64,000 bases of DNA from Dehalococcoidia bacterium (lineage in GTDB: Bacteria; Chloroflexota; Dehalococcoidia; Lucifugimonadales; UBA3495), in contig OZ247430.1 of assembly GCA_965232895.1 (NCBI GenBank), forward strand, positions 40,934 to 104,933, given 5' to 3'. Position 1 is the first letter of the stretch. Each line of letters begins with the position of its first letter. The position numbers and the translations under genes were made by a program. Below, in pieces: positions 6,008 to 52,379 of the stretch. The notes below the pieces were generated by a model, which saw only the letters and a program-made list of their open reading frames with translations, did not search any database and was not told the DNA's origin.

Positions 6008-6159
6008 CAGGGCAATCGCATCATAGGCCTCACGCCCGTCACTCCGGCGAAAGCCGGAGTCCAGTGGTCATAGAATGAACGAATTTGAAGCGTATTTGAC
6101 GAATTCGATCACTGGATTCCTGCTTGCGCAGGAATGACGGCGATGGTGCGATTACCCTG
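6008..6159 (+). mobile_element. 152-bp MITE/REPIN-like element, copy A
   Basis: Terminal inverted repeats CAGGGCAATCGCA / TGCGATTACCCTG enclose two inverted CGTC-tagged hairpins; four more same-length copies in the window. Confidence 0.8.
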
Positions 6160-6214
6160 CCCGATTAGCACAGGACCTTTCCAAAGTCCCGGATAGCGGC
6201 CTTTCACCTCGAAC

Positions 6215-6292
6215 TGTCATTCCGGCTTGCGCTGGAATCCAGATCATTCTGAACATAACGACCTCTGGGTTCCCGCTTGCGCGGAAATGACG
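6215..6292. repeat. Second CGTC/TGTC-type REP doublet
   Basis: TGTCATTCCGGCTTGCGCTGGAATCCAG ... CTGGGTTCCCGCTTGCGCGGAAATGACG in inverted arrangement. Confidence 0.65.
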
Positions 6293-6389
6293 TATCAACT
6301 TTGGAAAGGCCCTGCGATGAGCGAGCCCGGTCGACCCTTCAGTAGTGTGATACATTGTGGCGGTAATTCGATGCCCGACCCGATATGCA

Positions 6390-7787
6390 ATGAATGAACC
6401 TGAACGGCCGGCGACTCGATTGCCGCTGCTGAATAAACTGCTGTTCTCGTCTGACCACATCGGTCTGCAGGCCATCAGTTATTTTCGGCAGTCGTGGATA
6501 CTTTTCTTTCTGGCTCCGCCGGCCAGTGAGGGCGTGGCCCTGGTCCCCGACCCGGGCATTGCCCTGCTGGGGATCGACCTGGATGCTCGCGTGTTCGCCG
6601 GTTTCCTGCTGTCTGCCGGCCGATTCGTTGACGCATTCACCGACCCGCTCATTGGTTGGTGGAGTGATCGCACCCGTAGCCGCTGGGGACGCCGCATTCC
6701 CTTCATCCTCTTCAGCACTCCATTCTACGGCCTGTTTGCCGCCCTCGTATGGTTCCTGCCCTCTGAGGAGGCGAGCCTTTGGAACGCGCTGTACTTCGTG
6801 ATCATACTGGAGCTGTTCTTTACCGCAGCCACGATGTCCAGCGGCGCCCTGGAAGCCCTGATACCGGAAGTAACCAACACGCCCAAAGACCGGATGAACC
6901 TGGTGGGCTTGATCTTCGCCTTTGCTTATGTTGGCGCCGCCATCGGTCTGATCATTATCGGCAGAATGGTGGACGCCCTGGGCTTCCAACAGGTGGGAAT
7001 TATTCTGGCCCTAATGGGCGTGGTCTTCCGATACTTGTCGCTGTCGGCAATATGGCGACGGGCGCCCCGTCACACACCACCGGCGCAGGTTGCTTTTTGG
7101 CGTGGATTGGGCGACACCTTGCGCAACCCTCAGTTCGTTTATTACCTGCCCACCTTTGTGATGTTCACCACTGGCGTCGGCATGATGCAGAGCTGGATAC
7201 CTTTCTTCACTGTGGTGATTCTGCAGGCGGACAAGTCGGTTACCGCAAATCTGTTTATCGCCGTTTTTATTGGCGTCGCCATCGCCGGCGTAAGTATCTG
7301 GCTCGTGTTTGAATTCTTCCAGGTGAGCAAGCGGCGCATCTACGGCCTATGTCTGTTGGGCAGCGGAGCCGCGTTCCCGTTGCTGGCGTTGGTGGGCCTG
7401 ATTGAGAGCGGAGGCGTGATGCTGCAGAGTCTCATCCTGTTCTTTGCCGCCGGACTGCCCATGGCGGCGGTGTTCCTGCTGCCCAAAGCCATCACTGCGG
7501 ACGTGACCGATTACGACGAATTGTTGACCGGAGAGCGACGGGAGGCGATGTTTTACTCCACGCAGAATTTCTTCGAGAAGATCACCTTCGCGTTGCCTCC
7601 GCTTTTCCTGAGCCTGATACTGCTGTTAGGAGACTCTCCCGACAACCCCCTGGGTATCCGGCTGGCCCCCGTGTTTGCCGGAGCGCTGGCCGCCGCCGGG
7701 TTCATCCTCTGGCCGCGCTACCGCCTGCCCGACACGGTAAACCGCGAAACGGTGACCCAGGCCGGGCTGCTGCGCCAGGCGGCCTGA
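6390..7787 (+). CDS. MFS transporter, glycoside-pentoside-hexuronide (MelB-like) family
   Basis: DAFTDPLIGWWSDRTRSRWGRRIPF motif, about 12 hydrophobic segments, TGERREAMFY. Confidence 0.88.
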   Translation: MNEPERPATRLPLLNKLLFSSDHIGLQAISYFRQSWILFFLAPPASEGVALVPDPGIALLGIDLDARVFAGFLLSAGRFVDAFTDPLIGWWSDRTRSRWGRRIPFILFSTPFYGLFAALVWFLPSEEASLWNALYFVIILELFFTAATMSSGALEALIPEVTNTPKDRMNLVGLIFAFAYVGAAIGLIIIGRMVDALGFQQVGIILALMGVVFRYLSLSAIWRRAPRHTPPAQVAFWRGLGDTLRNPQFVYYLPTFVMFTTGVGMMQSWIPFFTVVILQADKSVTANLFIAVFIGVAIAGVSIWLVFEFFQVSKRRIYGLCLLGSGAAFPLLALVGLIESGGVMLQSLILFFAAGLPMAAVFLLPKAITADVTDYDELLTGERREAMFYSTQNFFEKITFALPPLFLSLILLLGDSPDNPLGIRLAPVFAGALAAAGFILWPRYRLPDTVNRETVTQAGLLRQAA

Positions 7788-7797
7788 CGGTCGCCCG

Positions 7798-9846
7798 CTA
7801 GGAATCCAGTTGCGCCGCCAACGCGGCGGCCTCGGTGACCGGAAGCTGGCACGCGTAATTTTCGCACACGTAGGCCGTGGGCCGGCCGTCTTGCATCACC
7901 CTCTGCTCCAGCAGCGGGGAGTCCTTCAGCGGCGGGTTCGTCGGATCGGCAACCCCAACCAGCACCTTGTTCGGCAGGAACCGCCGGCTCACCTCATCGA
8001 GCATATCCCCGGTACCGGGATTTTCGATTGGCCCGACGATGACGATTTCCCGGGGCAGCGAGACGTAGAAATCGAGCGCGCCCAGCCAGTGGCCGGTGGC
8101 GGAAGGCGCGCGCCCCAGCATCTGCTGCATCGCCCGGAGCGGGGTCGCTCCCTTTGCCGAATAGTCGTCGTTGCCGGTGACCACGGCCAGCCGGAGCAGA
8201 ACGTCGGCGGCGACTGAACTGCCGCAAGGCTGAGCGTTGTCGAACACGTCGCGGGGCCGGATCACCAGCGTTTCGTGATCGCTGCCAGTGTCGTAGAAGC
8301 CGCCGACAGCGTCATCCCAGAACAGGGCGTTCATGCCGCCGGCTACTGACACGGCCTCCTGGAGCCAGCGGGGTTCCAGCGTGGCCTCGTGCAGGGACAG
8401 CAGTCCGTCGGCCAGGCAGGCGTAGTCCTCGAGGTAGCCATTGAGCTTGGCCTCGCCATTGCGCCAGGTGCGGAGCACGCGACGGTTTGCGTCGCGCATG
8501 TTGCCGAGGAGGAAATCCGCATTCTTGCGCGCGGCGTCCAGGTAATCCTCGCGGCCCAGAGCGGCGCCGGCCTCCGCGAAAGAGCGGAGCATCATGCCGT
8601 TCCACGAGGTGAGGACCTTGTCATCGCGCAGGGGATGGATGCGCTGCTCGCGAACGTCGAGGAGGACGGCCCGGGCGCGAGCGACGGCGGCGAACAGATC
8701 GGACTCGGAGACGCCGCGCTGGCTCGCGTACTCTTCCGGCGGACGGGCAATGTTCAGGATATTGGCGCCTTCGAAGTTGCCGCGCTCGGTGACGCCGTAG
8801 TAGCCCATGACGAGATCGGCATCGTCCCCCAGCAGCGGACGCAGTTCGTCCGGCGTCCACACGAAGAACTTGCCCTCGACGCCCTCGCTGTCGGCGTCCT
8901 GGGCAGAGTAGAACCCTCCCGCCGGATCGGTCATCTCCCGCAGCACGTAGTCGAGGGTCTCCTCGGTGACGCGGCGGTACAGGGGGTTGCCGGTTACCTG
9001 CCAAGCGTGGAGGTACAGGCGGGCGAGCAGGGCGTTGTCGTAGAGCATCTTTTCGAAATGCGGAACGAGCCAGTAGGCGTCGGTGGAATAGCGGTGGAAT
9101 CCGCCACCCACCTGGTCGTATATGCCGCCGTAGGCCATCTTCTGCAGGGTCAGCTCGACCATCTCGAGGGCGCGGGCGTTGAAGCCGTGACGGTTGTAAC
9201 GCAGCAGGAACTCGGGGGTCATGGGCTGGGGAAACTTGGGCGCGTTGCCAAAGCCGCCGTTGAGATGGTCGAACTGGGTGGCGAGCTGGGAGTAGGCGTT
9301 GTGCATCACCTCGGTGGTCAGGGGCGTGAAACCGCGCGGCATCTGCCCGGTGCGCCCCATCTGCTCGGACAGTTGGCGGGTGACGCGGTCGATCTCGCCC
9401 TTGTTGGTGTGGTAGGCCTGGCCGGCGGCGGCCAAAAGGCGAGGAAATCCGGGCATCCCCTGGCGGTCCTCAGGCGGGAAATAGGTGCCGCCGTAGTAGG
9501 GATGGCCCGCGGGAGTGAGGAACACGGTCATGGGCCAGCCGCCGCTGCCGGTCATCATCTGCACCGCCTCCATGTAAACGGCGTCGAGGTCGGGCCGCTC
9601 CTCGCGGTCCACCTTGATGTTGACGAAATGCTCGTTCATCAGGGCGGCGATGTCCTCGTTCTCGAAGGACTCGCGCTCCATGACGTGGCACCAGTGGCAG
9701 GCGGAGTAGCCGATGCTGAGCAGGATGGGCCGGTCCTCGTCCCGGGCGCGGCCGAGGGCCTCCTCACCCCAGGCATACCAGTCCACGGGATTTTCGGCGT
9801 GCTGGAGCAGGTAGGGACTGGTCTCGTTGATCAGGCGATTTGCCAT
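7798..9846 (-). CDS. Thioredoxin-domain protein, YyaL/SPATA20 family
   Basis: [54 protein letters not shown]. Confidence 0.93.
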
Positions 9847-10371
9847 GGGGTAACACTCCTGGGCAAGGGCGGGAAGGACCGGGCGAAGGACACGGCAGGT
9901 CGGGCCGTTTTGAAGGTTTGACCGGTTTCGTTATAGAGGTGACGAATTACGTCATCTATGTCATGGGGCGATTCCGGCTGCGGGGCATGGACCGGATAAT
10001 AGCACGGGGAGGCGGTGCGCCGGTTGTCGAGGTGGTCGCGAACCATCGCTGTAGGGCGCGTGGCTGACGGATGGTGCGCTCATGGGAGGCTGAGCCCCAG
10101 GCTAGCCGGCGAGGGCAAATGGGCGGCGGCGAGCGTTTGCGCTGCAACGCGCGCGCGTTCCTAAACGAGCGGCGTGTCGGAGCAGACCTGCTACTGCTGC
10201 CGGGCTGCGGAACGCGGCCTTCGGGCCCACCAGACACGTCGTTCGACGCGGTTCGCGTGGCCCTGGCCCATAGAGATTGCAGGCGTCCCTCGTAACCGCC
10301 TGGCGGGTGCGAATGCGTGCGACTACTTCCACGTTGACCGTTCGCTCGCTGCCAGCGTGGGTCAACGGGCG

Positions 10372-13300
10372 CTATCCGAAGAGCCCGCCGGCATTCTCAA
10401 TTACGCCGTCTATCTCCGACATCTGCGTAATGGTCTCGGCGATGGCCGCCGCCATCCGACGGTAGTGCTCCACGTCGGGATAAGTTGACAAGGCGCGCCG
10501 GCGGCGATCTTTCAGCCACTTGTCCATGGGCTGGTAGCCGCCAATGCGGAAATCCCACACCGCCGGCGCAACGCCGGCAAAATATTGGCTGGTGTTGATA
10601 TAAACGCGGCCGTCATCGTCAGCATCACCGGGCGCGTACTTTGGGTAGCCGGCGGCGACCACGTTGTCGCCGGGAACCGGAAAACCCACCAGTGTAGCGC
10701 TCACGCTCTCGGAGCGCAGCAGATGGGCCTCGACCAAGCGGCGGCCCACGCCGGCCATCTCCCGGAACAAACTAGCGTCGCCCGGCGGCGGCACCCGCGG
10801 GAAGTCGGACCGGAGAAACTGGTCGTAGCGTTCCCGGTACGTCGGCGAGTGGAAGACGGCGTAGATGTAGTGGAACACATCCTCCGGGCCAAAGGTTTCC
10901 TGCAAGTTGCCGGGGCCATCGGGGATGAACGTCAATCCGGTGCGCCGTGCCAAGTCGTCGGTGAACCCCGGCGCAAGATTCGCTTCGCGCTCTCCGTCGG
11001 CATAAAGACCCGAGGCAATTTCTTGATCGGTGGGGTAGAGGTACAGCGGAGCAAATTGCATTATGCCTTTGCTGCTGTAAAAAGCGCGGTTATCGACAAT
11101 CTCTTCATACACACCAAAATGAGAATATTCGTCATTCACTGCTACTTGGCGCATAAAAGCCAAGCCAGTATTTCCGTCTGCTAGTATATGTTGCATTACA
11201 TTTCGGCGGCGTCTGGTGATGAACGAGTCACTGTAATAGGTGTACCTGATGTCAAACGGGCGGTACAGGATCGGAACCACCAAATTCTCGTCCATGTTTT
11301 CATCTGCTGGGAACTCAAAATCACGCGCCGTGTGACTCATTTCATCTGCTGACCAGCGGATGGCCACCTTATCTTGTCCGGTCACAATGCCCGCCGAGTT
11401 CACGGGCATAATATCGGTAATTTTCCGCCATTGCGCGTATTCAGTTTCAAGTTTCTTGTCCCAAGGTTTGAATCGGTAATCTGGAGATTCCGGCTCAACG
11501 GTTTGCCAGTCGGTAGTCAGTAAGTCCGATGTGGACAAGCTGGCGTACTTGGCATCACGAGTGCCCCACAAATCGGCGTGCCTCACCTTCGCCGGCCCTA
11601 GCTTGCCTGCTTCTTTAACGAAGATAGCAATAGCGACACCCTGCTGGATGTCAAAAACATTTTCGTCGACGCTGCCGTCGGGGGCGCTTTCCTTCATTCG
11701 AGAATTGCCATGCAGATCCAACAGGTAGATGTCGGTGAAAGTGTCCAGCAGTTGCTGCCGCATCCCCCGAAAAGTCGGGTTGTCCAGATAACCGTGGTTG
11801 GTGATAAACGCCAGGACACCGGCGCCGGTCTGCTGTATCCGCCACTGAGCGAAGCGGATGAACTTTACGTAATCGTCCTGCAGCCATTTGGGATTGCGCT
11901 CACCCAGCGGCTGCCCGTCAACGGTTTTGTAATCGTTGACCAGGTTGGCTATCCAATCCCCTTTGTTGGCGGAATGGCCGGAGTACGGAGGGTTGCCGAT
12001 GACAACCATGATGGGCAGGTCGCGCTTGACTGCGGCGGCAGCGTTGGCCTCGTCGGTGATGGCGCGCAGCGGACCGAACATAGTCTGCGTTTGCTGTTCC
12101 GCCTGCTCCAGCGAGTTGGTCAGGAACACACCCAGACGTTCGTCGGCGCCGAACTCGTAGGCCCAGGTCGCCTGCTGCTCCGACGGCAGATCCTGCGCCG
12201 CCAACTGCATCCCCAGCTTCAGGTGAGCCATAGCGTAGGGAGCCATCAACAGCTCAAAGCCGAACAGCCGGGGCAACAGGTGCTCTTTGACGTACCCGCT
12301 CCACATCCCGGCGTTGCCGGCATTTTTGAAATGGTCCCGGACGTGATCAATCACGGCATAGAGAAATGATCCGGTGCCACAGGCCGGGTCCAGCACCAGG
12401 ACGCGGTGGGACTTGCCGGTGATGGTCTGGCCGCCGCCGTCAAGGTATTCGTAATCGGCGGTAGCGTTATCGGCCAGCCCGTCGGCGCAGCCGAAACGCT
12501 CCTTGAGCAGACGGTCGACGGAGCGCACGATGTAGGAGATCACCGGCTCCGGGGTGTAATACACGCCGCGCCGCTCCCGCAGGGCCGGGTCATAGGCCGC
12601 CAGGAAGGTTTCGTAGAAGTGCATCACCGGGTCCTGGCGGGCGGCGCGGCTTCCGAAATTGGCGAATACGGCGGCCAGGTCGGCGCCGGCCAGCAGTTGC
12701 GTCAGGTCGTCGACGAAAGAGACGAAGGGCTCGGCGTCAAGGTCGGGGCCGGCCATCATCCCAAAAATCCGGCGGATGAAAGGATTGGCGGCAGGGATCA
12801 AATGGGCGGCGTCGTTGCGGCGAAAATCCCCGGCGCCAGCCTGGCCGGCGTGGTTGAGCCGGGCAGCGAAAAGGCCATAGGCCAAAGTTTGCGCGAACAT
12901 GTCAGCAAAAGTGTCCGTGGCCAGGTCGGGAACCAGAGCCGTCCGGGAAGCGTCGTAAAGATCGCGGATGTTGTCCGAGGCTTCACCGTTCTCAAAGGCA
13001 GCCGCCACCACGTCACGGGTGAGATGCGTCAGCCGCGCCATGCGCAGCGCAAGTTCCTCAGAATTGGCGACAGGTTCAGGTGGACGGTCGAGGAAATCGG
13101 CCAGCAGCAACCCTACGTTCTTGACGCCGTCGGGCTCGTCCAGACTAGCCACACCGCGGCATTGGCCGGCTATGTACTGGCGGAACTCGGTGTAGTTGGT
13201 CAGGATAAGGTTGGGAAGCGCGTTGCGATACCGCTTGAATTGCCGGCCGTTGTCGGTGTCGGGACGCGCCCGGGCGCTTTCCCGGTCAATATCAGCCAGG

Positions 13301-13542
13301 GAAACGCCCGTATCCTTGGCTTCTACGTAGCCAAGGATCAGAGGGTTATCCCCAGCGAGAGTAACGACAAAATCAGGGGCGCCGCATTCGATATGCCTGG
13401 GCTCGTTAACCGCAGTCACTTTGCCGTCTGCTTCCAATAACGCCTGCAGGGCGGGCCGGTGGGTATGCTCGGTGGCGTTGCCCAATTCCAGGCTGGCCTG
13501 GAGCGTCTTGCGATAAGTCGTGAAATCATTGGCGGAAGGCAT
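10372..13542 (-). CDS. Single-chain type IIG/IIL restriction-modification enzyme (PD-(D/E)xK nuclease + N6-adenine MTase + TRD, no helicase)
   Basis: N-terminal GAPDF...YVEAK; motif I VLDPACGTGSFL; motif IV GNPPY; GVYYTPEPV; C-terminal YRPFD and IGGYQPMDKWLKDR. Confidence 0.9.
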   Translation of the reverse strand: MPSANDFTTYRKTLQASLELGNATEHTHRPALQALLEADGKVTAVNEPRHIECGAPDFVVTLAGDNPLILGYVEAKDTGVSLADIDRESARARPDTDNGRQFKRYRNALPNLILTNYTEFRQYIAGQCRGVASLDEPDGVKNVGLLLADFLDRPPEPVANSEELALRMARLTHLTRDVVAAAFENGEASDNIRDLYDASRTALVPDLATDTFADMFAQTLAYGLFAARLNHAGQAGAGDFRRNDAAHLIPAANPFIRRIFGMMAGPDLDAEPFVSFVDDLTQLLAGADLAAVFANFGSRAARQDPVMHFYETFLAAYDPALRERRGVYYTPEPVISYIVRSVDRLLKERFGCADGLADNATADYEYLDGGGQTITGKSHRVLVLDPACGTGSFLYAVIDHVRDHFKNAGNAGMWSGYVKEHLLPRLFGFELLMAPYAMAHLKLGMQLAAQDLPSEQQATWAYEFGADERLGVFLTNSLEQAEQQTQTMFGPLRAITDEANAAAAVKRDLPIMVVIGNPPYSGHSANKGDWIANLVNDYKTVDGQPLGERNPKWLQDDYVKFIRFAQWRIQQTGAGVLAFITNHGYLDNPTFRGMRQQLLDTFTDIYLLDLHGNSRMKESAPDGSVDENVFDIQQGVAIAIFVKEAGKLGPAKVRHADLWGTRDAKYASLSTSDLLTTDWQTVEPESPDYRFKPWDKKLETEYAQWRKITDIMPVNSAGIVTGQDKVAIRWSADEMSHTARDFEFPADENMDENLVVPILYRPFDIRYTYYSDSFITRRRRNVMQHILADGNTGLAFMRQVAVNDEYSHFGVYEEIVDNRAFYSSKGIMQFAPLYLYPTDQEIASGLYADGEREANLAPGFTDDLARRTGLTFIPDGPGNLQETFGPEDVFHYIYAVFHSPTYRERYDQFLRSDFPRVPPPGDASLFREMAGVGRRLVEAHLLRSESVSATLVGFPVPGDNVVAAGYPKYAPGDADDDGRVYINTSQYFAGVAPAVWDFRIGGYQPMDKWLKDRRRRALSTYPDVEHYRRMAAAIAETITQMSEIDGVIENAGGLFG

Positions 13543-13754
13543 CTGTGCGTATCATCTCATCGCGACGGAGCGCGGCAGTGGATTTACATTGCTGAATGTA
13601 CGACCGGGCCGGCGGGCGGTCAATCGTGTGGGCGCCAGTATGCGCAAAACATTCGACCAACGCTCGGTTCCACCACGACGCTTGCGTTGAGAATGCCGAG
13701 CTACCAGAGTTTTCGGCATGATGCAGCACGCAGGGGTTGTTCTCGTTGATCGAG

Positions 13755-13906
13755 CAGGGCAATCGCACCATCGCCGTCATTCCTGCGCACGCAGGAATCC
13801 AGTGATCTAATTTGTTAAATACGCTACAAATTCGTTCATTCTATGACCAATGGACTCCGGCTTTCGCCGGAGTGACGGGCGTGGAGCCTATGCTGCGATT
13901 GCCCTG
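13755..13906 (-). mobile_element. 152-bp MITE/REPIN-like element, copy B (inverted)
   Basis: Reverse-complement near-copy of 6008-6159 with the same TIRs and length. Confidence 0.8.
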
Positions 13907-14006
13907 GTTGACCGAGCGGTTGGGCACGAGGGTCGCTCTCGATTCTGGTACAATCCCGGCTGATGTGCAGGGCATACCGGATGGATAACCATCGCGAGGG
14001 AATGCG

Positions 14007-14657: not shown

Positions 14658-14700
14658 TGACAATAGGCTCCGGCGTCGTTGACGCCGCCGAAGGGAAAGA

Positions 14701-35535: not shown

Positions 35536-35539
35536 TTGC

Positions 35540-37568: not shown

Positions 37569-37643
37569 CGTCGGTCACCGCAAGTGCAGCACCGGGATTT
37601 TAGCACAGGGCACACACGACAAGGGGAACCCGGGGTCTTCGCG

Positions 37644-37795
37644 CAGGGCGATCGCACTGTCGCCGTCTTTCCTGCGCAAGCAGGAATCCAGTGATCTAAT
37701 TCGTTAAATACGCTTCAAATTCGTTCATTCTATGACCAATGGACTCCGGCTTTCGCCGGAGTGGCGGGCGTAGAGCCTATGATGCGATTGCTCTG
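37644..37795 (-). mobile_element. 152-bp MITE/REPIN-like element, copy C (inverted, slightly degenerate)
   Basis: Same length and architecture; TIRs CAGGGCGATCGCA / TGCGATTGCTCTG. Confidence 0.78.
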
Positions 37796-37850
37796 GGTCT
37801 TCGCGCTCAGCGTTGCAGCCGACGGCGAGGTTGTTCGTCGGGCGTCGGCG

Positions 37851-45521: not shown

Positions 45522-46850
45522 TCAGCGGGAGTCCGCCACGATGGATTCGAGCTCATCCGGGTCTTTGGGTATGGCGTCCGACAAGACGCGACACCCGTCT
45601 TCCGTGACCAGCACATCGTCTTCAATACGAATGCCGATCCCCCGGTAGATATCAGGGGCTTGCTTGGCCTGGGGACCAAAGTAGAGCCCGGGCTCGATGG
45701 TCAGCACCATTCCCGGGCGCAGGCGCACCTGGCCCCGGTCATCCCGGTAAGGACCGCAGTCGTGCACGTCCAGGCCCAGCCAGTGCGACGTGGCGTGCAT
45801 GTAGTAGTCCCGGTACGACTGCTGCTCCATGATGCCGTCAACGCTGCCGGACATGATACCCAGATCGATCAGGCCCTGTACCAGCGTGCGGGCAGCAGTC
45901 CGATGCACGTCGTCGAAACCGGCGCCGGGCTTCACATCCGCAATAGCCTTGCGTTGCGACTCCAGGGTCAGCTCGTAGATCGCCCGCTGCGGAGCCGTGA
46001 ACTTGCCGGACACCGGCCACGTCCGTGTGACGTCGGCAGTGTAAAAGCCATACTCGGCGCCGGCGTCGATCAGCAAAAGGTCTTCGGGGCCGAGAGCATC
46101 CCGGTTCCGGACGTAATGGAGTACGCAGGCGTTGGCTCCGCCGGCCACTATGGACGGGTAGCCGTTGCGCGGCGAACCGTGCTGCCGGAACGGGCGCTCA
46201 AGGGCGGCCTGCACCTCGTATTCGTGCACGCCCGGCGCCGCAGTCCGCATGGCCGCGTCGAACCCGTGAGCGGTGATGTCGATCGCTCGCTGGAGAAGCG
46301 CGATCTCATCGTCGGTCTTGATCTGGCGCATCAGGTCAATTGTCGGGGTGGGGTCATCAATGCGACGAATGGGCTTCGCGCCTCTCTGGGCCATACCCCG
46401 GCGACGCTTGACCAAGCCGGAAATGATCGCGTCCACCCGATCGTCGCTGCCCAGGGCGTAGTGGACCGTATCGCAATCGGCGAGCAGCTTGGGAAGCTGG
46501 CTGTCCAACTGGTCGACGGAGTAGGCGGCGTTGGCTCCCAGGGGACCGACGGCGCCTCGGACGCCAGCGCGATAACCTACCCAGATCTCGAAGGTGGGAT
46601 CGTACGGCCGTACAAAAAGCGTGTAAGGAGTGTGCGATCCGGGGCGCAGAACCGCCACGGCGTCGGGTTCGTCGAACCCGGTCAGATACCAGAAGCTGGA
46701 CGGCTGCCGGTATTCGTGGTCAACGTCGTTATTGCGGGATGCGTCATGCCCCGCGGCCAGAACGATTGCGCCGTTTGACAAGGATTCCATCAGCCGTCTG
46801 CGGCGGCTGTTGAACTCGCGGGGTTCGGTTGCCAGAACGTCGGCGCTCAT
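45522..46850 (-). CDS. pepP: Xaa-Pro aminopeptidase
   Basis: YRQPSSFWYLTG, CVLHY, LIDAGAEY, ADVTRT, HATSHWLGLDVHD, TIEPGLY, GIRIEDDV. Confidence 0.93.
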   Translation of the reverse strand: MSADVLATEPREFNSRRRRLMESLSNGAIVLAAGHDASRNNDVDHEYRQPSSFWYLTGFDEPDAVAVLRPGSHTPYTLFVRPYDPTFEIWVGYRAGVRGAVGPLGANAAYSVDQLDSQLPKLLADCDTVHYALGSDDRVDAIISGLVKRRRGMAQRGAKPIRRIDDPTPTIDLMRQIKTDDEIALLQRAIDITAHGFDAAMRTAAPGVHEYEVQAALERPFRQHGSPRNGYPSIVAGGANACVLHYVRNRDALGPEDLLLIDAGAEYGFYTADVTRTWPVSGKFTAPQRAIYELTLESQRKAIADVKPGAGFDDVHRTAARTLVQGLIDLGIMSGSVDGIMEQQSYRDYYMHATSHWLGLDVHDCGPYRDDRGQVRLRPGMVLTIEPGLYFGPQAKQAPDIYRGIGIRIEDDVLVTEDGCRVLSDAIPKDPDELESIVADSR

Positions 46851-47276
46851 TGTGAAAGAGACTCACTGCCAGTGGTCGTGATCGGTAGGTCGTTTGCGTT
46901 TTGGCCGACGGAATTGTATCAGACGTAGAATGAACGCTCAACGTCAGCCACAGATTGACGCCATGTTTTCGATCGCCATAGCGAGGCGAAAGCGAGTGGC
47001 AACCCCGTGGACCCGGCCAACCGCTACTGCCGCAGTGCAACCGCCGCGCCGATGGCGATGGTCAAACCCGCCAATTCTTGCGGGTTACAGTATGTGCGTC
47101 CAGTTGACAGCTAAGGCCGCCCATTGTTACGCTTCGCGCACAATCGATTGGTCTGTCAACGTGGTTGAAGCGCGTACTGCGCAACATACATTCAATATAC
47201 TTTTCACCCTCATGCCGGACACTGAATTAGGGCCCGATCGCAATTATCAAATAGCCGTCCGTATGCGCCCCGACTA

Positions 47277-47428
47277 CAGGGCAATCGCATCATAGGCTCC
47301 ACGCCCGTCACTCCGGCGAAAGCCGGAGTCCATTAGTCATAGCATGAAAGAATTTGAAGCGTATTTGATAAATTCGACCACTGGATTCCTGCTTGCGCAG
47401 GAATGACGGCGATGGTGCGATTGCCCTG
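47277..47428 (+). mobile_element. 152-bp MITE/REPIN-like element, copy D
   Basis: Perfect TIRs CAGGGCAATCGCA / TGCGATTGCCCTG. Confidence 0.8.
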
Positions 47429-47456
47429 GCCCCGACTAGGTTATGTTGACATTTCG

Positions 47457-47551
47457 TGTCATTCCGGCTTTCGCCGGAATCCAGGGTGCTAAAGAAGGGT
47501 AAAATCCGGCAGACTTTCCGATGGAAAAGGTCTCTGGGTTCCTGCTTTCGC
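47457..47551. repeat. Second-type REP doublet
   Basis: TGTCATTCCGGCTTTCGCCGGAATCCAG ... CTGGGTTCCTGCTTTCGCAGGAACGACG. Confidence 0.65.
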
Positions 47552-47744
47552 AGGAACGACGGATATTTTCCCAAATTTCAACAGAACCTAATCTCGTACG
47601 CGCACTGACCGATAAGTAATCGAGCCCCCGTCCCCCTGGCGATTTGGAATAGCACGTCCTGGAGCGACCCAAGCGATGATACTGAGCATCAGGCACGCAA
47701 CCAGCGTCTTCCGGCCGGCAAAGCCAACAGGTTCCGTGCGCCAC

Positions 47745-48845
47745 ATGTTGACGCTGCCGGCCTTGCTTCTTGCCCTGATGCTTGCATCCCTGGCCTGTGC
47801 CGGCGCCGCGCCCGGCGAACCGGCGGACTCCGACCCGCCGGCGGGCGCGGAAACCGGCAAGCTCACCATCGTTACCACGCTCAACATCGTCGCCGACTGG
47901 GTGGCGGCCGTGGGCGGCGACGGGGTGGTGGTCACGTCACTGTTGCCCGCTGACACTGACCCCCACAATTACAAACCCGGCGCCCAGGACGTCGCCAAGG
48001 TAGCCGAGGCCGACCTGGTGGTCACCATCGGACAGGGGCTCGAGGACAAGTGGGTCAACGACCTCGTTTCCAGGGTAGCCAAGGACACCGACGCCATCGT
48101 GTCCTTGAACCAATACATTGATCTCCTGGAGTACGAGGAGGAACAGGACGATCACGACCATGGCGATGGCAATGCCGGTCACGACCATGGCGACGCCGGT
48201 CACGACCATGGCGACGCCGGTCACGACCATGGCGACGCCGGTCACGACCATGGCGACGCCGGTCACGACCATGGCGACGCCGGTCACGACCATGGCGACG
48301 CGGACCACGACCACGGGCCACTGGACCCGCACTTCTGGTTCGACCCCCTGCGGGTCAAGGATGCGGTGGGCGGCATCGCTGAACGCCTGGCAGCCGCCGA
48401 CCCCAACCGCCGGTCTGAATACGAGGCCAACGCCGCCGCCTACGCTGCCGAGTTGGACACGCTCCACCACTGGATCGAGGTGCAGGTTGCGACGGTGCCC
48501 GAGGAGCGTCGGCTGCTCGTTTCTTCCCACGACAGCCTGAGGTACTTTGCCCACCGTTACGGTTTCAAAGTCGTGGGAGCGGTCAAACCGCCCTCCGGCC
48601 AGGAAGAACCGACCGCCCAGGAGATGACGGCATTGGTGGAACACATCAGGGAAGAACGCGTTCCAGCGATCTTCACCGAGGACATCTTCGCGCCCCGGCT
48701 GTCACAGAGGATCGCAGAAGAGACCGGCGTGCAGATAGTTTCGGCGCTGCGCACCAGCTCACTGGACGAGCCGGGCAGCCCGGCCGGCGCCTACCTGGGG
48801 TTCATGCGCTACAACGTGGGCGTCATAGTGGAGGCGCTGAAGTAG
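47745..48845 (+). CDS. Zn/Mn ABC transporter substrate-binding lipoprotein (ZnuA/AdcA-like) with His-rich loop
   Basis: Lipobox SLAC; DPHNYKP, DPHFWFDP, SHDSLRYFA; start uncertain (47676-47745). Confidence 0.9.
   Translation: MLTLPALLLALMLASLACAGAAPGEPADSDPPAGAETGKLTIVTTLNIVADWVAAVGGDGVVVTSLLPADTDPHNYKPGAQDVAKVAEADLVVTIGQGLEDKWVNDLVSRVAKDTDAIVSLNQYIDLLEYEEEQDDHDHGDGNAGHDHGDAGHDHGDAGHDHGDAGHDHGDAGHDHGDAGHDHGDADHDHGPLDPHFWFDPLRVKDAVGGIAERLAAADPNRRSEYEANAAAYAAELDTLHHWIEVQVATVPEERRLLVSSHDSLRYFAHRYGFKVVGAVKPPSGQEEPTAQEMTALVEHIREERVPAIFTEDIFAPRLSQRIAEETGVQIVSALRTSSLDEPGSPAGAYLGFMRYNVGVIVEALK
48174..48299 (+). repeat. 21-bp coding tandem repeat x6 (AGHDHGD)
   Basis: GCCGGTCACGACCATGGCGAC six times, exact. 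Confidence 0.92.
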
Positions 48846-48847
48846 TC

Positions 48848-49570
48848 ATGGACACGGAGGGATCGGCGCCCCGCTTGGCCTTCGAGGATCTGACTGTCCA
48901 CGTCAACGGGCTGCTGGTGCTGGACCGGATAAATTTTGAGATCGGCTCCGGATGCCTGGTGGGTGTGCTGGGTCCCAACGGATCGGGCAAGAGCACCCTG
49001 TTCAACACCATTGCGTCGTTGATACGTCCCACCTCCGGCCGGGTGCTGATCAACGGCCGTGCGCCCGAAGAGGAACGGGGCCAGGTGGCCTACATGACGC
49101 AGTACGAGCGGATCAACACCCGTATCCCCATGAGCGCGTGGGACGTGGTGATGCAGGGCCGCGTGCGGGAGATCGGCTGGTTCCGCTGGCCAGGCCGCTC
49201 TGACCGGGAGATCGTCCGCCGTGCCCTGGAAACGGTAGAGATGTCGCTATTCAGCAATGCCCAGATTACCGAGATGTCCGGCGGGCAGCGCAAGCGTGTC
49301 TTCATCGCCCGCGCCCTGGCCCAGGGCGCCAGCATCCTGCTGCTGGATGAGCCCTTTTCCGGGGTGGACATTCCCTCTCAGTCTGCGCTGCTGGGTGTAT
49401 TGCTCCGGCTTCGTGACGACGGCCACACCATCCTGATGTCGTCTCACGACATCATCCAGATGTTTGAGATTTGCGACGATTACCTGCCTCTGAATTGCGA
49501 GCCGGAGGCGCTGGAGCGAATCAATCTGAGCCGGCAGCAAATCCAGCCTCCTTACCCGGTTGGGACATGA
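48848..49570 (+). CDS. Metal ABC transporter ATP-binding protein
   Basis: GPNGSGKST, MSGGQ, LLLDEPFSGVD, SSHD. Confidence 0.9.
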   Translation: MDTEGSAPRLAFEDLTVHVNGLLVLDRINFEIGSGCLVGVLGPNGSGKSTLFNTIASLIRPTSGRVLINGRAPEEERGQVAYMTQYERINTRIPMSAWDVVMQGRVREIGWFRWPGRSDREIVRRALETVEMSLFSNAQITEMSGGQRKRVFIARALAQGASILLLDEPFSGVDIPSQSALLGVLLRLRDDGHTILMSSHDIIQMFEICDDYLPLNCEPEALERINLSRQQIQPPYPVGT

Positions 49571-49619
49571 CCGGGCAGGCCGCATTCTCTCCCACGTCGA
49601 TGCTCGGGCAGGGTCGGTC

Positions 49620-50483
49620 TTGGAAGCCCTAATCGAAGGGCTCTGGGGGCCCTTCGAGTACAGTTTCATGCGCCGGGCGCTGGTGGTGTCCCTGCTGGTG
49701 GGGGTGATGTGTCCGGTGCTGGGCGTGTACGTGGTGACCCGAGGCCTGGGCTTCGTTGGAGACGCCCTGGCCCACTCGGTGCTGCCAGGGATGGTGGCTG
49801 CCTTCATGCTGGGATTCAGCCCTTTCGCCGGCACCATTCCGGTGGCCGTCGGCGTGGCGCTGCTGATCGGCTACCTGGTCAAGCGGGTTGGCGTCGGCGA
49901 GGACACCTCGGTGGGCATTACCTTTGCCGGACTGTTTGCGCTGGGACTGGTCATGTTGACCGCCGCGCGCGGGCTGCCGGTGAACCTGGAGGACATTCTC
50001 CTGGGCCAGGTTCTCGGAGTGTCGCAAACCGACGTTTACATCACCCTGTCCCTGGCGGGAGTGGTACTGGCGCTGGTGTTTGTCATCCGCAAGGAGCTGC
50101 TTTTCTCTAACTTCGATCCCACCGGCGCGCTGGTCATGGGGTTGCCCACCAACCTGCTGGAGTACACGCTTCTGGTCCTGCTGGCGGTGGTAACCGTGAT
50201 CTCGCTCCAAGCCGTGGGCATCGTGCTGGTGGTGTCCATGCTCATAACGCCGGCGGCCACCGCGCTGCTGTTGGTGCGCAACTTTTACCGGGCGTTGCTG
50301 CTTGGGGTGGCATTGGGAGTTGCCGCTGCGTTCGGCGGGCTATACCTGTCCTTCTATTTCAACCTGCCTTCAGGCCCGGTGATGGCACTGCTGACCACCT
50401 TCTGTTTCATAACGGCGCTGGCCTGGAAGCAGAGCGTCACCCGGTTCGCCAGCGCCGGGCGGCGGGGCGAGCCCTCCCGCTAG
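49620..50483 (+). CDS. Metal ABC transporter permease (ZnuB/MntB family)
   Basis: FMRRAL, GDALAHSVLPG, LLITPAATA; start uncertain (49560-49620). Confidence 0.88.
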   Translation: MEALIEGLWGPFEYSFMRRALVVSLLVGVMCPVLGVYVVTRGLGFVGDALAHSVLPGMVAAFMLGFSPFAGTIPVAVGVALLIGYLVKRVGVGEDTSVGITFAGLFALGLVMLTAARGLPVNLEDILLGQVLGVSQTDVYITLSLAGVVLALVFVIRKELLFSNFDPTGALVMGLPTNLLEYTLLVLLAVVTVISLQAVGIVLVVSMLITPAATALLLVRNFYRALLLGVALGVAAAFGGLYLSFYFNLPSGPVMALLTTFCFITALAWKQSVTRFASAGRRGEPSR

Positions 50484-51334
50484 CCGGCCGAGCGGCTCCG
50501 GCGGACCCAGGACACCAGAAAGCCCCGGCGCGGCGACAGCCCGGCCACCAACAGCAGCAGTCCGACGGATACCACCACGATGGTGGGTCCTGTTGGCAGG
50601 TCAAAGTAGTAAGAGCAGTACAAACCGACCAGCACTGCGAACAGGGCACAAGCGACGCTGGCCACCATTATCGATGAGAGCCGCCGGGTCAGCAGGGTAC
50701 CGGTAACCGACGGCACCACGAGCAAAGACATGACCATCACGTTGCCCACGGTTTTGATGGCCGCTACCGTTGTCAGCGCCACCAGCAGCGGCAGCAAGTA
50801 TTCGAGGAAGCGCACCGGTACGCCGGCGGCCTCCGCGACGGTGGCGTCATAAGTGGTGAACACCAGCTCCTTGTAGAAGGCCCACACCACTCCCATAACG
50901 CCGATCGCCAGGACGCCCACGCTCAGCACGTCGAGCCACGAAGCCCCCAGGACGTTGCCGAACAGAATCCCCAGCAGGTCTCCGGCATAACTGGCCAACG
51001 AGTTGATGATGATCACTCCGACGGCGAACCCTCCCGCGAACATCACCCCGATAATTGCGTCTATCCGGATACCCGAGCGGCGCGACAGGGCGGAAATCAC
51101 CAGCGACGCCGGTACGGCCCAGCAGAGAGCCCCGAGGAACACGTTGGCGCCAAATATGAACGCAGCGGCCATACCGGTCAGCGACGAGTGAGCGATCGCG
51201 TCGCCGAGAAAAGCCATGCCGCGCAGGACTACGAACGTGCCAACGATGCCGCAGGCGGTGGCAGCCAGGGCCGATACCAAAAGGGCGCGCTGCATGAATC
51301 CGTACTGCATCGGCTCGATGATCAGGTCGAGCAC
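50480..51334 (-). CDS. Second metal ABC transporter permease, convergent
   Basis: FMQRAL, LGDAIAHSSL, DAIIGVMF, KELVFTTYD, LPTGPTIV. Confidence 0.88.
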   Translation of the reverse strand: MLDLIIEPMQYGFMQRALLVSALAATACGIVGTFVVLRGMAFLGDAIAHSSLTGMAAAFIFGANVFLGALCWAVPASLVISALSRRSGIRIDAIIGVMFAGGFAVGVIIINSLASYAGDLLGILFGNVLGASWLDVLSVGVLAIGVMGVVWAFYKELVFTTYDATVAEAAGVPVRFLEYLLPLLVALTTVAAIKTVGNVMVMSLLVVPSVTGTLLTRRLSSIMVASVACALFAVLVGLYCSYYFDLPTGPTIVVVSVGLLLLVAGLSPRRGFLVSWVRRSRSAG

Positions 51335-51418
51335 AGAGACCTCCGGCAGGCCGGTCGCACCGGCCTCATCTGGTGACCCGTGCGAAGCGGTCCCGGGTCA
51401 GGTTGCTGAATGAGTTGA

Positions 51419-52171
51419 TTACAGTTTGCCGGCGGCGCGCAGCTGATAGCGCACCTTGCCGACGCCGCCGAACTTGAGCCGAAGGAGGCCTTTGACGTCC
51501 TCCCAGGCAGTGCGGATGATGCGGACGCGGGTGTCCGGATCATCAGTCCAGTGCACCGGAATTTCCCGGATGCGAAAGCCGCATTTCTGCGCGAGGATGA
51601 GCAGCTCCGAGTCGAAAAACCAGCCGTTATCCAACACCAGTGGGCTAAGATCGTGAGCTACCCTTTTGCTGACCGCTTTGAACCCACACTGCGCGTCGCG
51701 GAAAGGAGTGAAAAACATCGACCGGAACAACAGGCTGTACCCGCGTGAGGTTATCTCGCGCTTCAGGGTGCGTCCGACCACGCGCGATTGGGGCAACAGG
51801 CGAGAGCCGATGGCGACATGGTATCCATCGTCGACAATTGCCGACACCAACGTGGGCAAATGCGCCAGGTCTGTCGAGAGGTCAACGTCCATATAGGCCA
51901 TGACATCCGCGGCGCTCTCGGTCCACGCCCGCCGCAGCGCCCGGCCGCGGCCGCGCTCTTGCAGCCGGATGAAACGCACCTCGGCGAAACGCTCCGCGAG
52001 ATCAGCAGCAGCCTCGAGGGTGCCGTCGGTCGAGCCGTTATCGGCCACCACGATGCTCCACGAGTATTCGGCCATGTTGGATGACATAAACTCATGAAGC
52101 CGACCAACGCTTTCGGGAAGCGCCCGCTCTTCGTTGAGGCAGGGTATGATCACGTCGATGCTGGCGCGCAT
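51419..52171 (-). CDS. Glycosyltransferase family 2 (polyprenyl-phosphate sugar transferase-like)
   Basis: VIIPCLNEE, DNGSTDGT, YMDVDLS, DAQCGFKA, WFFDSE. Confidence 0.9.
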   Translation of the reverse strand: MRASIDVIIPCLNEERALPESVGRLHEFMSSNMAEYSWSIVVADNGSTDGTLEAAADLAERFAEVRFIRLQERGRGRALRRAWTESAADVMAYMDVDLSTDLAHLPTLVSAIVDDGYHVAIGSRLLPQSRVVGRTLKREITSRGYSLLFRSMFFTPFRDAQCGFKAVSKRVAHDLSPLVLDNGWFFDSELLILAQKCGFRIREIPVHWTDDPDTRVRIIRTAWEDVKGLLRLKFGGVGKVRYQLRAAGKL

Positions 52172-52227
52172 AATTGAGACATTATAGCAACAAGCGTACA
52201 GGCGAATGTCCGGCAAACACTGGAAAT

Positions 52228-52379
52228 CGGGGCAATCGCATCATAAGCCTCACGCCCGTCACTCCGGCTTTCGCCGGAGTCCAGTGGTCATAGAATGAAC
52301 AAATTTGAAGCGTATTTGACGAATTCGATCACTGGATTCCTGCTTGCGCAGGAATGACAGCGATGATGCGATTACCCTG
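52228..52379 (+). mobile_element. 152-bp MITE/REPIN-like element, copy E
   Basis: Near-identical to copy A, but the first hairpin loop is TTTC. Confidence 0.8.

Follow-up and report, generated by a model that had tools for sequence, protein, structure and literature searches.

How does a short non-coding element come to combine terminal inverted repeats (TIRs) with an inner pair of inverted REP-like hairpins, and which enzyme moves it? The window, by which we mean the whole 64,000-nt stretch of DNA analysed, poses this question at five dispersed intergenic sites. The initial annotation had placed a 152-bp element with 13-bp TIRs at each of them, and this is borne out at all five coordinates, with every copy exactly 152 bp long. 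We refer to this family as F1.

6008..6159, + strand: F1 MITE copy 1, 152 bp
13755..13906, - strand: F1 MITE copy 2, 152 bp
37644..37795, - strand: F1 MITE copy 3, 152 bp
47277..47428, + strand: F1 MITE copy 4, 152 bp
52228..52379, + strand: F1 MITE copy 5, 152 bp

Anatomy of the element

Divergent gene pairs enclose four of the five window copies, among them copy 1, which lies between genes for a monomeric IDH and an MFS transporter. In copy 1 the TIRs occupy element positions 1-17 and 136-152, hairpin A approximately positions 27-55 and hairpin B approximately 107-135. The 13-bp TIRs, CAGGGCAATCGCA / TGCGATTRCCCTG in every window copy, extend imperfectly to about 17 bp. Each copy also contains the two inverted CGTC...CCA units that had been described around an AT-rich spacer: hairpin A, CGTC-ACTCCGGC-GAAA-GCCGGAGT-CCA, and hairpin B, CGTC-ATTCCTGC-GCAA-GCAGGAAT-CCA, flanking 49 nt of AT-rich sequence; in copy 5 the hairpin A loop is flipped and reads TTTC instead of GAAA. 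No ORF is present in the 152-bp element (148 bp in a subfamily), and the consensus sequence adopts a single long, imperfect hairpin fold (-76.7 kcal/mol, z = -8.1).

Genome-wide copies and target-site duplication

The 4.28-Mb genome contains 62 near-full-length F1 copies of 148-153 bp with a mean pairwise identity of 90.6%, a repetition far beyond chance. Their density is about one per 69 kb, so that the value of about one per 13 kb projected from the window was too high. At least one pair of copies shows no difference over 152 aligned columns and identity reaches 97.5% or more in 29 pairs, while positions of the TIR pair CAGGGCAATCGCA / TGCGATTGCCCTG are 96-97% conserved over the 62 copies. 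Coding sequence is avoided, with 4.8% of insertions lying deep in a coding-like ORF as against 57% of random sites.

With the element boundaries set at CAGGG...CCCTG, the direct repeat in the flanks is 10 bp long, the per-position match being 0.77-0.84 at k=10 versus 0.16-0.40 at the other tested k. The initial annotation had seen no target-site duplication (TSD), but one matching at 9 or more of 10 positions borders 45 of the 62 copies; it is exact in 32 and decayed in 17. In the window, the repeats of copy 3 (GGTCTTCGCG at 37634-37643 and 37796-37805) and copy 4 (GCCCCGACTA at 47267-47276 and 47429-47438) match at 10/10 positions, and those of copy 2 (GTTGATCGAG at 13745-13754 / GTTGACCGAG at 13907-13916) and copy 5 (CACTGGAAAT / CACCGGAAAT) at 9/10. 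The TSD of copy 1 has decayed (ACCGATGAGCG / CCCGATTAGCA, 8/11).

Empty sites in sister species

Orthologous sites that lack the element bear on whether the whole unit inserts or, as had been raised as an alternative, only the inner doublet. When joined flanks were queried against 54 genomes of the genus, matches ran contiguously across the junction at four of the five sites in the window. Base-precise empty sites for copy 4 are present in two sister genomes (G004:C8 and G052:C1); they read ...GCGCCCCGACTA|ATCTCGTACGC, the 152 bp and one TSD copy both being absent. At the site of copy 5, G004 carries a single CACCGAAAAT without the element, and the TSD region of copy 2 is single-copy and MITE-free in both G004 and G052, within intergenic sequence that has diverged. 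One contiguous junction-spanning match for copy 3 in more than 20 genus genomes is consistent with absence of the MITE; the alignments inspected, those of G004 and G052, lack the element and contain diverged intergenic DNA. None of the sister species keeps the element at the tested sites, and the tested insertions are all younger than the split from sister species with 93-95% identical flanks. Judged by these alignments, the inserting unit is the entire TIR-to-TIR element and not the inner doublet alone.

An ISAs1-family partner

The element had been read as non-autonomous, with TIRs that point to a DDE transposase. This reading is upheld by an ISAs1-family insertion sequence (IS) of 1.23 kb that shares the TIR and has the same TSD length. 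The ISfinder features of the family are a length of about 1.2-1.5 kb, one ORF, TIRs that are short, and direct repeats about 8-10 bp long.

C1:3441171-3442403: partner IS, 1233 bp, ends CAGGGCAATCGCGTCTTA, intact 378-aa ORF

The resident IS and the MITE share the same 12-nt end and are identical at 16/18 terminal positions overall. Against NCBIfam NF033564, the model for ISAs1 family transposases (cut-off 70), the 378-aa ORF reaches 427 bits; it also matches Pfam PF13808 and PF01609. This is the one intact ISAs1 copy in the genome studied; sister genomes hold many, in three clades (94%, 69% and 57% amino-acid identity) that all have CAGGGCAATCGC ends. IS copies are 1230-1237 bp long with a single 378-aa ORF. 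Among ten sampled in sister genomes (L254-L263), eight are flanked by a clear direct repeat, which is an exact 10-bp TSD in seven cases, one has an ambiguous repeat and one has none. The resident transposase ORF shares 94% identity with a multi-copy IS in G052 that looks active. Because the TIR and the 10-bp TSD are common to the 152-bp element and the 1.23-kb IS, we regard the element as a MITE that a DDE transposase would move in trans, almost certainly one of the ISAs1 family.

The resident intact copy has no TSD in its own flanks, and TIR position 13 is G in this IS versus A in the MITE. The MITE end is nearer to that of the 57% clade (CGCATTTCA), which the genome retains only as a fragment (C1:678764-678983). 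Given this mismatch and the fragmentary state of the nearer clade, mobilisation by the resident copy would need some tolerance; the MITE burst may be over. Hairpin abundance and ISAs1 copy number do not correlate across the genus (rho = 0.03).

Identity of the inner hairpins

A census of the genome yields 287 hairpins. The CCA tail is present in 268 and a C precedes GTCA in 252, so that the head is CGTC, and not GTAG, in 252/287. All 287 have an 8-bp stem beginning with A (mostly AT), most have a 4-nt loop, and the doublets are without exception convergent, their spacers measuring 55-57 or about 31 nt. CGTC-1 REPs were defined by a CGTC head, an 8-bp stem starting with AT, a 4-nt loop, a CCA tail and an arrangement mainly as head-to-head dimers (Di Nocera 2013, PMC3733652), and the hairpins of this genome agree with that definition on head, stem, loop, tail and dimers. 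Chenal 2025 (PMC11893778) gives the NTS pattern as CGTCATTCCCGCGMAVGCGGGAATCYRG, to which the variant CGTCATTCCCGCGAAAGCGGGAATCCAG conforms exactly. The form GTCATTCCCGCGAAAGCGGGAAT occurs 23 times, in addition to loop-flipped copies, and other variants are one compensated stem pair away; the exact 28-mer turns up in 120 or more contigs, which belong to more than 15 phyla. By sequence, the inner hairpins are CGTC-1 REPs, the same motif as the Neisseria NTS/dRS3 repeats (Ssn-related motifs).

This identity has consequences for the proposal that the CGTC units are associated with a RAYT transposase, which is contradicted by the literature, since no associated transposase is reported for CGTC REPs (Di Nocera 2013, PMC3733652). 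Pfam Y1_Tnp (PF01797) has no match in the genome, where control genomes do match, and over the 54 genus genomes it gives one marginal match and no credible RAYT.

A core shared among MITE families

About 82% of the hairpins (235/287) have a recognised MITE end no more than 70 nt away, 133 of them in F1, 47 in F3, 35 in F2, 15 in F4 and 5 in F5. For 46 there is no recognisable TIR nearby. No TIR accompanies a small number of the doublets or 26 of the solo hairpins. The hairpin-bearing, TIR-bounded MITEs represent at least four TIR families with differing TSD lengths (10, 9, 3-4 and 2-3 bp), two of which have members that neighbour F1 copies in the window.

6171..6314, unstranded: F3 MITE, 144 bp, TIR CAGGRCCTTTYCAAAGT, neighbours copy 1
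47439..47588, unstranded: F4 MITE, about 150 bp, TIR GGTTATGTTGACATTT, abuts the TSD of copy 4 directly

Each contains an inverted CGTC hairpin pair of its own, separated in the F3 element by a short spacer. F3 numbers about 34 paired copies, with a TSD of 9 bp; the F4 element has TA or CTA as its TSD, and both G004 and G052 lack it at the orthologous site. Homology links the F1 spacer to those of F2- and F4-TIR elements (59-71% identity, z = 4.4-6.6), F3/F1 chimeras with junctions at the hairpins are present, and MITEs of three or more TIR families have the hairpin-spacer-hairpin core in common. Loop flips were also seen, as were half-hairpin stutters. The earlier designation of the element as a hybrid holds for the REP doublet within separate TIRs, with a core that recurs in MITEs with other TIRs, but not for the supposed link to RAYT.

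An Ssn-like nuclease gene bracketed by the hairpins

C1:2145161-2145445: Ssn-like single-domain GIY-YIG protein, 95 aa (PF01541, 64 bits)

Hairpins at 2145461-2145483 and 2145021-2145123 surround this gene, one just upstream of the ATG, with its CCA tail 15 nt away, and a head-to-head doublet just downstream. Residues Y7, Y18 and E65 are spaced exactly like Y6, Y17 and E64 of SsnA (Chenal 2025, PMC11893778), and the 95-aa protein has no match to a specific NCBIfam model or to a PDB structure. The protein tied to NTS hairpins is the GIY-YIG ssDNA nuclease Ssn, not an HUH transposase (Chenal 2025, PMC11893778), and the Ssn-like protein is predicted to cut the hairpins described here. At 80 homologous loci from many phyla, a hairpin lies within 400 bp in 67 and on both sides in 41. 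Within the genus, the median hairpin count of a genome is 93.5 where a close Ssn homologue is present and 26 where there is none (Mann-Whitney p = 1e-4); six genomes with at least 100 hairpins are without a close homologue. Hairpins of a second type, which likewise forms the core of other MITEs, flank a second GIY-YIG paralogue on both sides.

Origin and movement of the element

We consider it about 85% probable that the 152-bp element is an ISAs1-family MITE that carries an Ssn-type hairpin dimer as cargo. The outer 13-17 bp would provide the binding and cleavage ends for an ISAs1-family DDE transposase supplied in trans, and repair of a 10-bp staggered cut would leave the 10-bp duplication as the whole TIR-to-TIR unit moves. 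Expansion to about 62 intergenic copies would have followed the split from the nearest sampled sister species. The inner ~106 bp would constitute a passenger module, the head-to-head CGTC-1 REP hairpin dimer, predicted to be the ssDNA recognition site of the genome's small, putative Ssn-family GIY-YIG nuclease. Riding on MITEs is probably the main route by which the hairpins have spread in the genome studied, and the cargo anatomy suggests how the "orphan" hairpin repeats of many phyla spread. It had been foreseen that the element might be a described family with a known partner; the partner has been found in the ISAs1 IS, but our literature search found no description of an ISAs1-derived MITE or of this family. 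We thus have a known kind of element, a modular MITE, with a newly identified ISAs1 partner.

A wider reading, which we think unlikely, is that the hairpin dimers recognised by Ssn constitute a portable core swapped among unrelated DDE MITE chassis, and that the two systems may cooperate. The MITEs would supply the means of spreading for the otherwise transposase-less CGTC/NTS repeats, and Ssn nicking or hairpin extrusion at the cores could drive TIR swapping, loop flips and half-hairpin stutters and might affect MITE mobility. If true, this would explain the spread of CGTC REP/NTS repeats and define a non-autonomous element that needs two enzymes.

The inverted doublet with its spacer of REPIN-like size would suit a REPIN-type element whose hairpins a RAYT (HUH/Y1) moves as ssDNA, the TIRs being incidental. 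We regard this as exceedingly improbable given the PF01797 results with their positive controls, the CGTC head for which the literature names no transposase, the 10-bp TSD, and the empty sites at which the TIRs are missing along with the doublet. Quite unlikely, in our judgement, is an origin of the inner doublet as a non-autonomous derivative of a hairpin-ssn-hairpin unit, moved by Ssn and repeatedly nested into TIR-only MITEs. That proposal concerns how the composites arose and is compatible with present-day movement by ISAs1. It draws on the outward-facing hairpin pair that brackets ssn genes in many phyla, much as REPs surround RAYT genes, on the recurrence of one core within at least three TIR families, on the TIR-free doublets and solo hairpins, and on the second GIY-YIG paralogue with its own hairpin type. 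However, Ssn is reported as a nuclease only, the literature being without strand-transfer activity; naked doublets are rare next to the 82% of hairpins associated with TIRs; TIR-only, "empty chassis" F1 copies were not seen beyond short deletion derivatives; and the hairpin junctions of the F3/F1 chimeras fit recombination between existing composites.

The element could also be a fossil, a MITE that was once mobile but can no longer be mobilised in this genome, its copies persisting neutrally or through exaptation as structural elements of RNA or DNA. The 90.6% mean identity, the 17 decayed TSDs, the position-13 difference and missing TSD of the resident IS, and the location of four of the five window copies in divergent promoter regions all lean this way. 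We nevertheless consider it doubtful in view of the identical pair and the 29 closely similar ones, the insertions that post-date the split from the sisters, and the intact transposase ORF with its 94% identical multi-copy relative in G052; no sigma-70-like promoter is predicted within the element.

Comparison with known systems

REPIN/RAYT systems (Bertels and Rainey, PMC3337134) resemble the present case in that an inverted REP pair with its spacer serves as the replicating unit and that the hairpins also flank a single-copy gene on both sides. They differ in that this genome has no RAYT, the head is CGTC rather than GTAG, and F1 has TIRs and a TSD, which REPINs do not. Closer in outward form is QMITE2 of Coxiella burnetii, which is 150-190 bp long, has TIRs and 7-11-nt direct repeats and contains a REP; its truncated copies resemble plain REPs (Wachter et al. 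2018, PMC5896051). The QMITE2 REP, however, is GTAG-type and a target of IS1111, whereas the F1 REPs are CGTC-1 in head-to-head pairs, common to several TIR families and linked to an Ssn-like nuclease gene. RUP/IS630-Spn1 and Correia/NEMIS (Di Nocera 2013, PMC3733652; Delihas 2011, PMC3184786) are likewise short and non-coding with many intergenic copies, and these MITEs share with F1 TIRs in common with a full-length IS, a TSD of fixed length and a long-hairpin fold. In contrast to them, the F1 partner is an ISAs1 IS with a 10-bp TSD, and the F1 interior is a foreign hairpin-dimer module rather than an IS remnant.

For the hairpins themselves, the likeness to CGTC-1 REPs and dRS3-NTS repeats (PMC3733652; PMC11893778) extends to head, stem, loop, tail and the mostly head-to-head dimers, and the Ssn-related motif systems share with this genome an ssn-like gene bracketed by the motif. 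The host here is an uncultured Chloroflexota genus ("Dehalococcoidia bacterium"); Chloroflexota are absent from the text of Chenal 2025 (PMC11893778) and are listed for GTAG repeats only in Di Nocera 2013 (PMC3733652). CGTC-1/NTS repeats have been described without a transposase or with their expansion unexplained, and TIRs or a TSD are unreported (PMC3733652; PMC11893778), with the one exception of a 41-bp palindrome around the CGTC dimers of H. neapolitanus (PMC3733652). Unlike these published repeats, most hairpins of the genome studied lie inside MITEs that are bounded by TIRs and a TSD.

A dispersed element with 10-bp target-site duplications

The five copies reported in the window are confirmed, each of exactly 152 bp:

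6008-6159, copy 1
13755-13906, copy 2
37644-37795, copy 3
47277-47428, copy 4
52228-52379, copy 5

When the copies are aligned together with their flanks, similarity starts at CAGGG and stops at CCCTG. The window occupies C1:40934-104933 in a genome of 4.28 Mb, 62.7% G+C and two contigs. Across this whole genome, blastn recovers 62 near-full-length copies of this family (F1), all of them chromosomal, most of 152 bp with one subfamily of 148 bp; either inner hairpin alone gives many partial matches. The copies have a mean pairwise identity of 90.6% and form several subfamilies, with 29 pairs at least 97.5% identical and at least one pair identical over 152 aligned columns. The genome-wide abundance that the initial annotation extrapolated from the window was too high, as the window, with one copy per 13 kb, is about fivefold denser than the genome as a whole (one per 69 kb). 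An exact 42-mer from the left end of the element, searched in genome contigs, has no match beyond this genome, and the 152-bp subfamily is therefore lineage-specific; the related genome G004 lacks the high-identity family, its best match being 79%. The host is a member of an uncultured genus of Chloroflexota, for which at least 54 genomes at species level are available.

The F1 consensus folds into a single long imperfect hairpin (-76.7 kcal/mol, z = -8.1). At the gathering threshold, Rfam returns one tRNA from the whole window and no match at the elements. As for a promoter at the TAGAAT motif of the spacer, no sigma-70-like site is predicted in or around copy 1.

The element had been described as having no evident target-site duplication (TSD). 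With boundaries at CAGGG and CCCTG, however, the ten bases 5' of the element recur directly 3' of it. The flank match per position is 0.77-0.84 at k = 10 compared with 0.16-0.40 at the other values in the tested range of 5-12, and the duplication agrees in at least nine of ten positions in 45 of the 62 copies, exactly so in 32. There is a weak target preference: TSDs have a G+C content of 60%, and C is their first base in 60% of copies. F1 insertion sites avoid genes, and four of the five window copies occupy divergent promoter regions. With the element removed in silico, an ORF with coding-like GC3 surrounds the site to a depth of at least 150 nt for 4.8% of sites, compared with 57% of random positions; this measure of ORF depth and GC3 replaced a stop-to-stop ORF test that was too noisy at 63% GC, and gene calls in the analysis are approximate.

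Empty sites in related genomes

We used the joined flanks of the five window copies as one query against 54 genomes of the same genus, and fetched and aligned selected regions. At the copy 4 site, the relatives G004 and G052 read ...GCGCCCCGACTA|ATCTCGTACGC, with the 152 bp, one copy of GCCCCGACTA and an adjacent second MITE all precisely missing. At the copy 5 site, G004 carries a single CACCGAAAAT, and the window has CACTGGAAAT, the element and CACCGGAAAT. The TSD region of copy 2 aligns in G004 and G052 as a single copy with no element, within diverged intergenic sequence. For copy 3, the joined flanks give one contiguous match across the junction in more than 20 genomes, and the alignments to G004 and G052 contain no element, again with diverged intergenic DNA. 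These empty sites at orthologous positions imply that the whole unit inserts from TIR to TIR (terminal inverted repeat), not only the inner REP doublet. The tested insertions are younger than the split from relatives with 93-95% identical flanks.

Near copy 2, positions 10372-13542 of the window encode a 1056-aa Type ISP restriction-modification protein (Pfam Type_ISP_C and N6_Mtase). The nearest relatives do not share the sequence on the left side of the copy 2 site, and this region may therefore be a recently acquired island.

A probable ISAs1-family partner transposase

A genome scan for the F1 TIR found other short elements (163, 183, 238 bp and others) and two IS-sized pairs. One of these is intact:

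C1:3441171-3442403 (chromosome contig), ISAs1-family IS, 1233 bp, intact 378-aa ORF

This IS ends in CAGGGCAATCGCGTCTTA, compared with CAGGGCAATCGCATCATA in the MITE. The other pair, on the 164-kb contig, is a frameshifted copy, and two more end fragments occur in the genome. The 378-aa ORF, at C1:3441252-3442385, scores 427 bits on NCBIfam NF033564 and also matches Pfam PF13808 and PF01609; its product is an ISAs1-family transposase. Within the genus the IS forms three clades (80-94%, 65-70% and ~57% amino-acid identity) and is often multi-copy. All ten genus copies that we fetched with flanks start and end with CAGGGCAATCGC. Eight have a clear flanking direct repeat, of exactly 10 bp in seven (e.g. 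ATTACCGGCC, TTTTTTGGCG, TGTGCTCATG); one of the remaining two is ambiguous and the other has none. Since the ends and the TSD length are common to IS and element, we identify the 152-bp element as a MITE of this ISAs1 group. The only intact copy of the genome has no TSD and carries G at TIR position 13, where the MITE has A; the end of the 57% clade (CGCATTTCA), a clade kept in the genome only as a fragment, is closer to the MITE end. Short inverted sequences, GGCTCGT ... ACGAGCC, border the intact copy, a setting that would fit insertion into a hairpin or a rearrangement.

The most likely mechanism, to which we assign a probability of about 0.85, is that an ISAs1 transposase would bind the 13-17-bp ends, move the whole unit and leave the 10-bp duplication, with the hairpin dimer as a passenger of the MITE. 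The initial annotation had approached the inner hairpins from the premise that CGTC REPs go with RAYT (Y1/HUH) transposases. This premise is contradicted by Di Nocera et al. (2013, PMC3733652), who found transposase genes associated with GTAG repeats but not with CGTC repeats, which "apparently lack a dedicated transposase". Pfam Y1_Tnp (PF01797) has no match in this genome and one marginal match in the 54 genus genomes, and control genomes do match; the REPIN/RAYT reading was rejected on these grounds. The role of the ISAs1 transposase has its own bounds: hairpin number and ISAs1 copy number are uncorrelated across the genus (rho = 0.03), and ISAs1 accounts for family F1, not for the hairpins overall.

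The inner hairpins and Ssn-like nuclease genes

The genome contains ~287 hairpins of the form CGTC-AYTCCNGC-loop-GCNGGART-CCA, with compensated stem variants. In their CGTC head, 8-bp stem starting with AT, 4-nt loop, CCA tail and convergent dimers they agree exactly with family CGTC-1, which Di Nocera et al. (2013, PMC3733652) equate with the Neisseria dRS3 and Rickettsia RPE-6 repeats. CGTC-tagged REPs, including Neisseria dRS3/NTS and Rickettsia RPE-6, occur in many phyla. The exact 28-mer CGTCATTCCCGCGAAAGCGGGAATCCAG is present in at least 120 contigs from more than 15 phyla (loci L111-L190), among them Proteobacteria, Nitrospirota, CPR, Elusimicrobiota, Bacteroidota, Planctomycetota and Binatia, often as convergent pairs 13-53 nt apart. 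When the literature was searched with the hairpin sequence or with the spurious peptides derived from it, an incidental Neisseria primer was the only match.

In many hairpins the loop is an exact inversion, TTTC for GAAA or TTGC for GCAA, with stem and flanks unchanged (window 52258-52280 and genome-wide); among CCC-stem hairpins, 23 copies have GAAA and 12 TTTC. Such exact loop inversion is a signature of template switching or inversion at perfect palindromes. A tandem array at C1:1471572-1472472 (138-bp period, ~6-7 units) holds at least 13 hairpins of two alternating types and has no TIRs.

The Neisseria NTS is defined as CGTCATTCCCGCGMAVGCGGGAATCYRG, and one hairpin variant of this genome fits the pattern exactly. 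SsnA, a 94-aa GIY-YIG protein, binds and cuts the NTS as ssDNA, and ssn homologues across phyla are flanked by NTS-like motifs; the expansion of NTS was left unexplained (Chenal et al. 2025, PMC11893778). Two genes of this kind are present here:

C1:2145161-2145445, Ssn-like 95-aa single-domain GIY-YIG protein (PF01541, 64 bits)
C1:1729924-1730190, second GIY-YIG paralogue, 44% identical to the 95-aa protein

Residues Y7, Y18 and E65 of the 95-aa protein are spaced like Y6, Y17 and E64 of SsnA, which were mutated by Chenal et al. (2025, PMC11893778); PDB and NCBIfam gave no specific match. One hairpin stands upstream of the gene, its CCA tail 15 nt from the ATG, and a head-to-head doublet just downstream. 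Homologues 65-99% identical occur in many phyla, and the 65-86% identity across phyla suggests horizontal spread. A hairpin lies within 400 bp of 67 of 80 homologous ssn loci, and on both sides of 41; typically one begins ~40 nt 5' of the start codon and another just past the stop, heads outward. A close Ssn homologue is present in 20 of the 54 genus genomes, and these have a median of 93.5 hairpins compared with 26 in the others (p = 1e-4). It is missing from all nine genomes that have no more than five hairpins, and also from six with at least 100. At least five tandem 29-nt "half-hairpin" repeats (GGCAGGAATGACGGGTTGTGTGTGAAC) follow the 95-aa gene on its 3' side, and similar 5'-arm stutters precede many solo hairpins.

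Hairpins of a second type, GTCATTGCGAGCGMAGCGYGGCAATC (74 copies), stand on both sides of the second paralogue, with stutter repeats of their own. The second type forms the core of F5 and of some F3 MITEs. Two nuclease/hairpin pairs thus ride MITEs.

Exchangeable ends and cores

Of the 287 hairpins, 235 (82%) are at most 70 nt inward of a recognisable MITE end. The counts come from pattern matching, which misses degenerate copies.

MITE families of the genome, sorted by TIR, with hairpins near an end
F1: TIR CAGGGCAATCGCA; 152 bp; TSD 10 bp; 133 hairpins
F3: TIR CAGGGCCTTTTCAAAGT; 144-145 bp; TSD 9 bp; 47 hairpins
F2: TIR ATAGGACTTACGCAGTTGG; 165 bp; TSD 3-4 bp; 35 hairpins
F4: TIR (CTAGGYA)GTGTTGACATTT; 142 or 167 bp; TSD 2-4 bp; 15 hairpins
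F5: TIR YAACTGTTCAGA; 158 bp; TSD about 8-10 bp; 5 hairpins

No IS-sized partner was found in the genome for the TIRs of F2-F5. Two of these families also occur in the window, beside F1 copies:

6171-6314, F3 MITE, 144 bp, TIR CAGGRCCTTTYCAAAGT, with its own CGTC hairpin pair
47439-47588, F4 MITE, ~150 bp, TIR GGTTATGTTGACATTT, adjoining the TSD of copy 4

Copy 1 and the F3 element share a divergent intergenic region, 11 bp apart, and the F3 family has ~34 paired copies with a 9-bp TSD. The F4 element is missing at the orthologous site of G004 and G052. Its TSD is TA or CTA, which implies other transposition machinery, though the hairpin pair is the same as in F1.

With the hairpins excluded, the 49-nt F1 spacer is homologous to F2 spacers (59-69% identity, z = 4.4-6.2) and to that of an F4-ended element in the genus genome G013 (71%, z = 6.6); it has no homology to the short F3 spacer. 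Some elements are chimeras joined at the hairpins. In one (G008, locus L235) the left end comes from F3 and both the core and the right end from F1; in another (C1, about 2210150-2210295) F3 supplies the left end and the core, and F1 the right end. F3 and F5 ends also enclose other cores. From the shared spacers, the chimeras and these other cores it follows that ends and cores are interchangeable modules. Many F3 elements and second-type hairpins adjoin further shared sequence, ...CAYGCGTACCCAGTTTCAC... (e.g. C1:1417781-1417925 and C1:2163239), which suggests at least one further repeat family and MITEs nested in MITEs.

Implications for hairpin spread

We infer that these transposase-less hairpins would multiply in this genus mainly by hitch-hiking on MITEs. 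The hairpins themselves may also serve as sites of recombination at which families exchange ends. The loop flips (GAAA to TTTC in copy 5) and the tandem half-hairpin stutters at both ssn genes fit hairpin-mediated template switching or cleavage and repair. In practical terms, these MITEs are a source of many spurious small ORFs and assembly breakpoints in MAGs of this abundant uncultured genus.

MITEs, REP-containing MITEs (Coxiella QMITE2, PMC5896051) and the NTS/Ssn pair (PMC11893778) are known already. In the searchable literature we found no ISAs1-derived MITE, the papers only co-mentioning both terms, no CGTC/NTS dimers shown within TIR- and TSD-bounded transposons with empty sites, and no single core common to MITE families of different transposition signatures. 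Here, most CGTC hairpins of a genome reside within TIR-bounded, TSD-flanked MITEs, and for one family the partner, ISAs1, can be named and precise empty sites exist. Whether CGTC hairpins spread by hitch-hiking on DDE-mobilised MITEs thus becomes a testable question. The MITEs of this genome are built from exchangeable ends and cores, and the second hairpin type, paired with the second GIY-YIG gene, behaves likewise.
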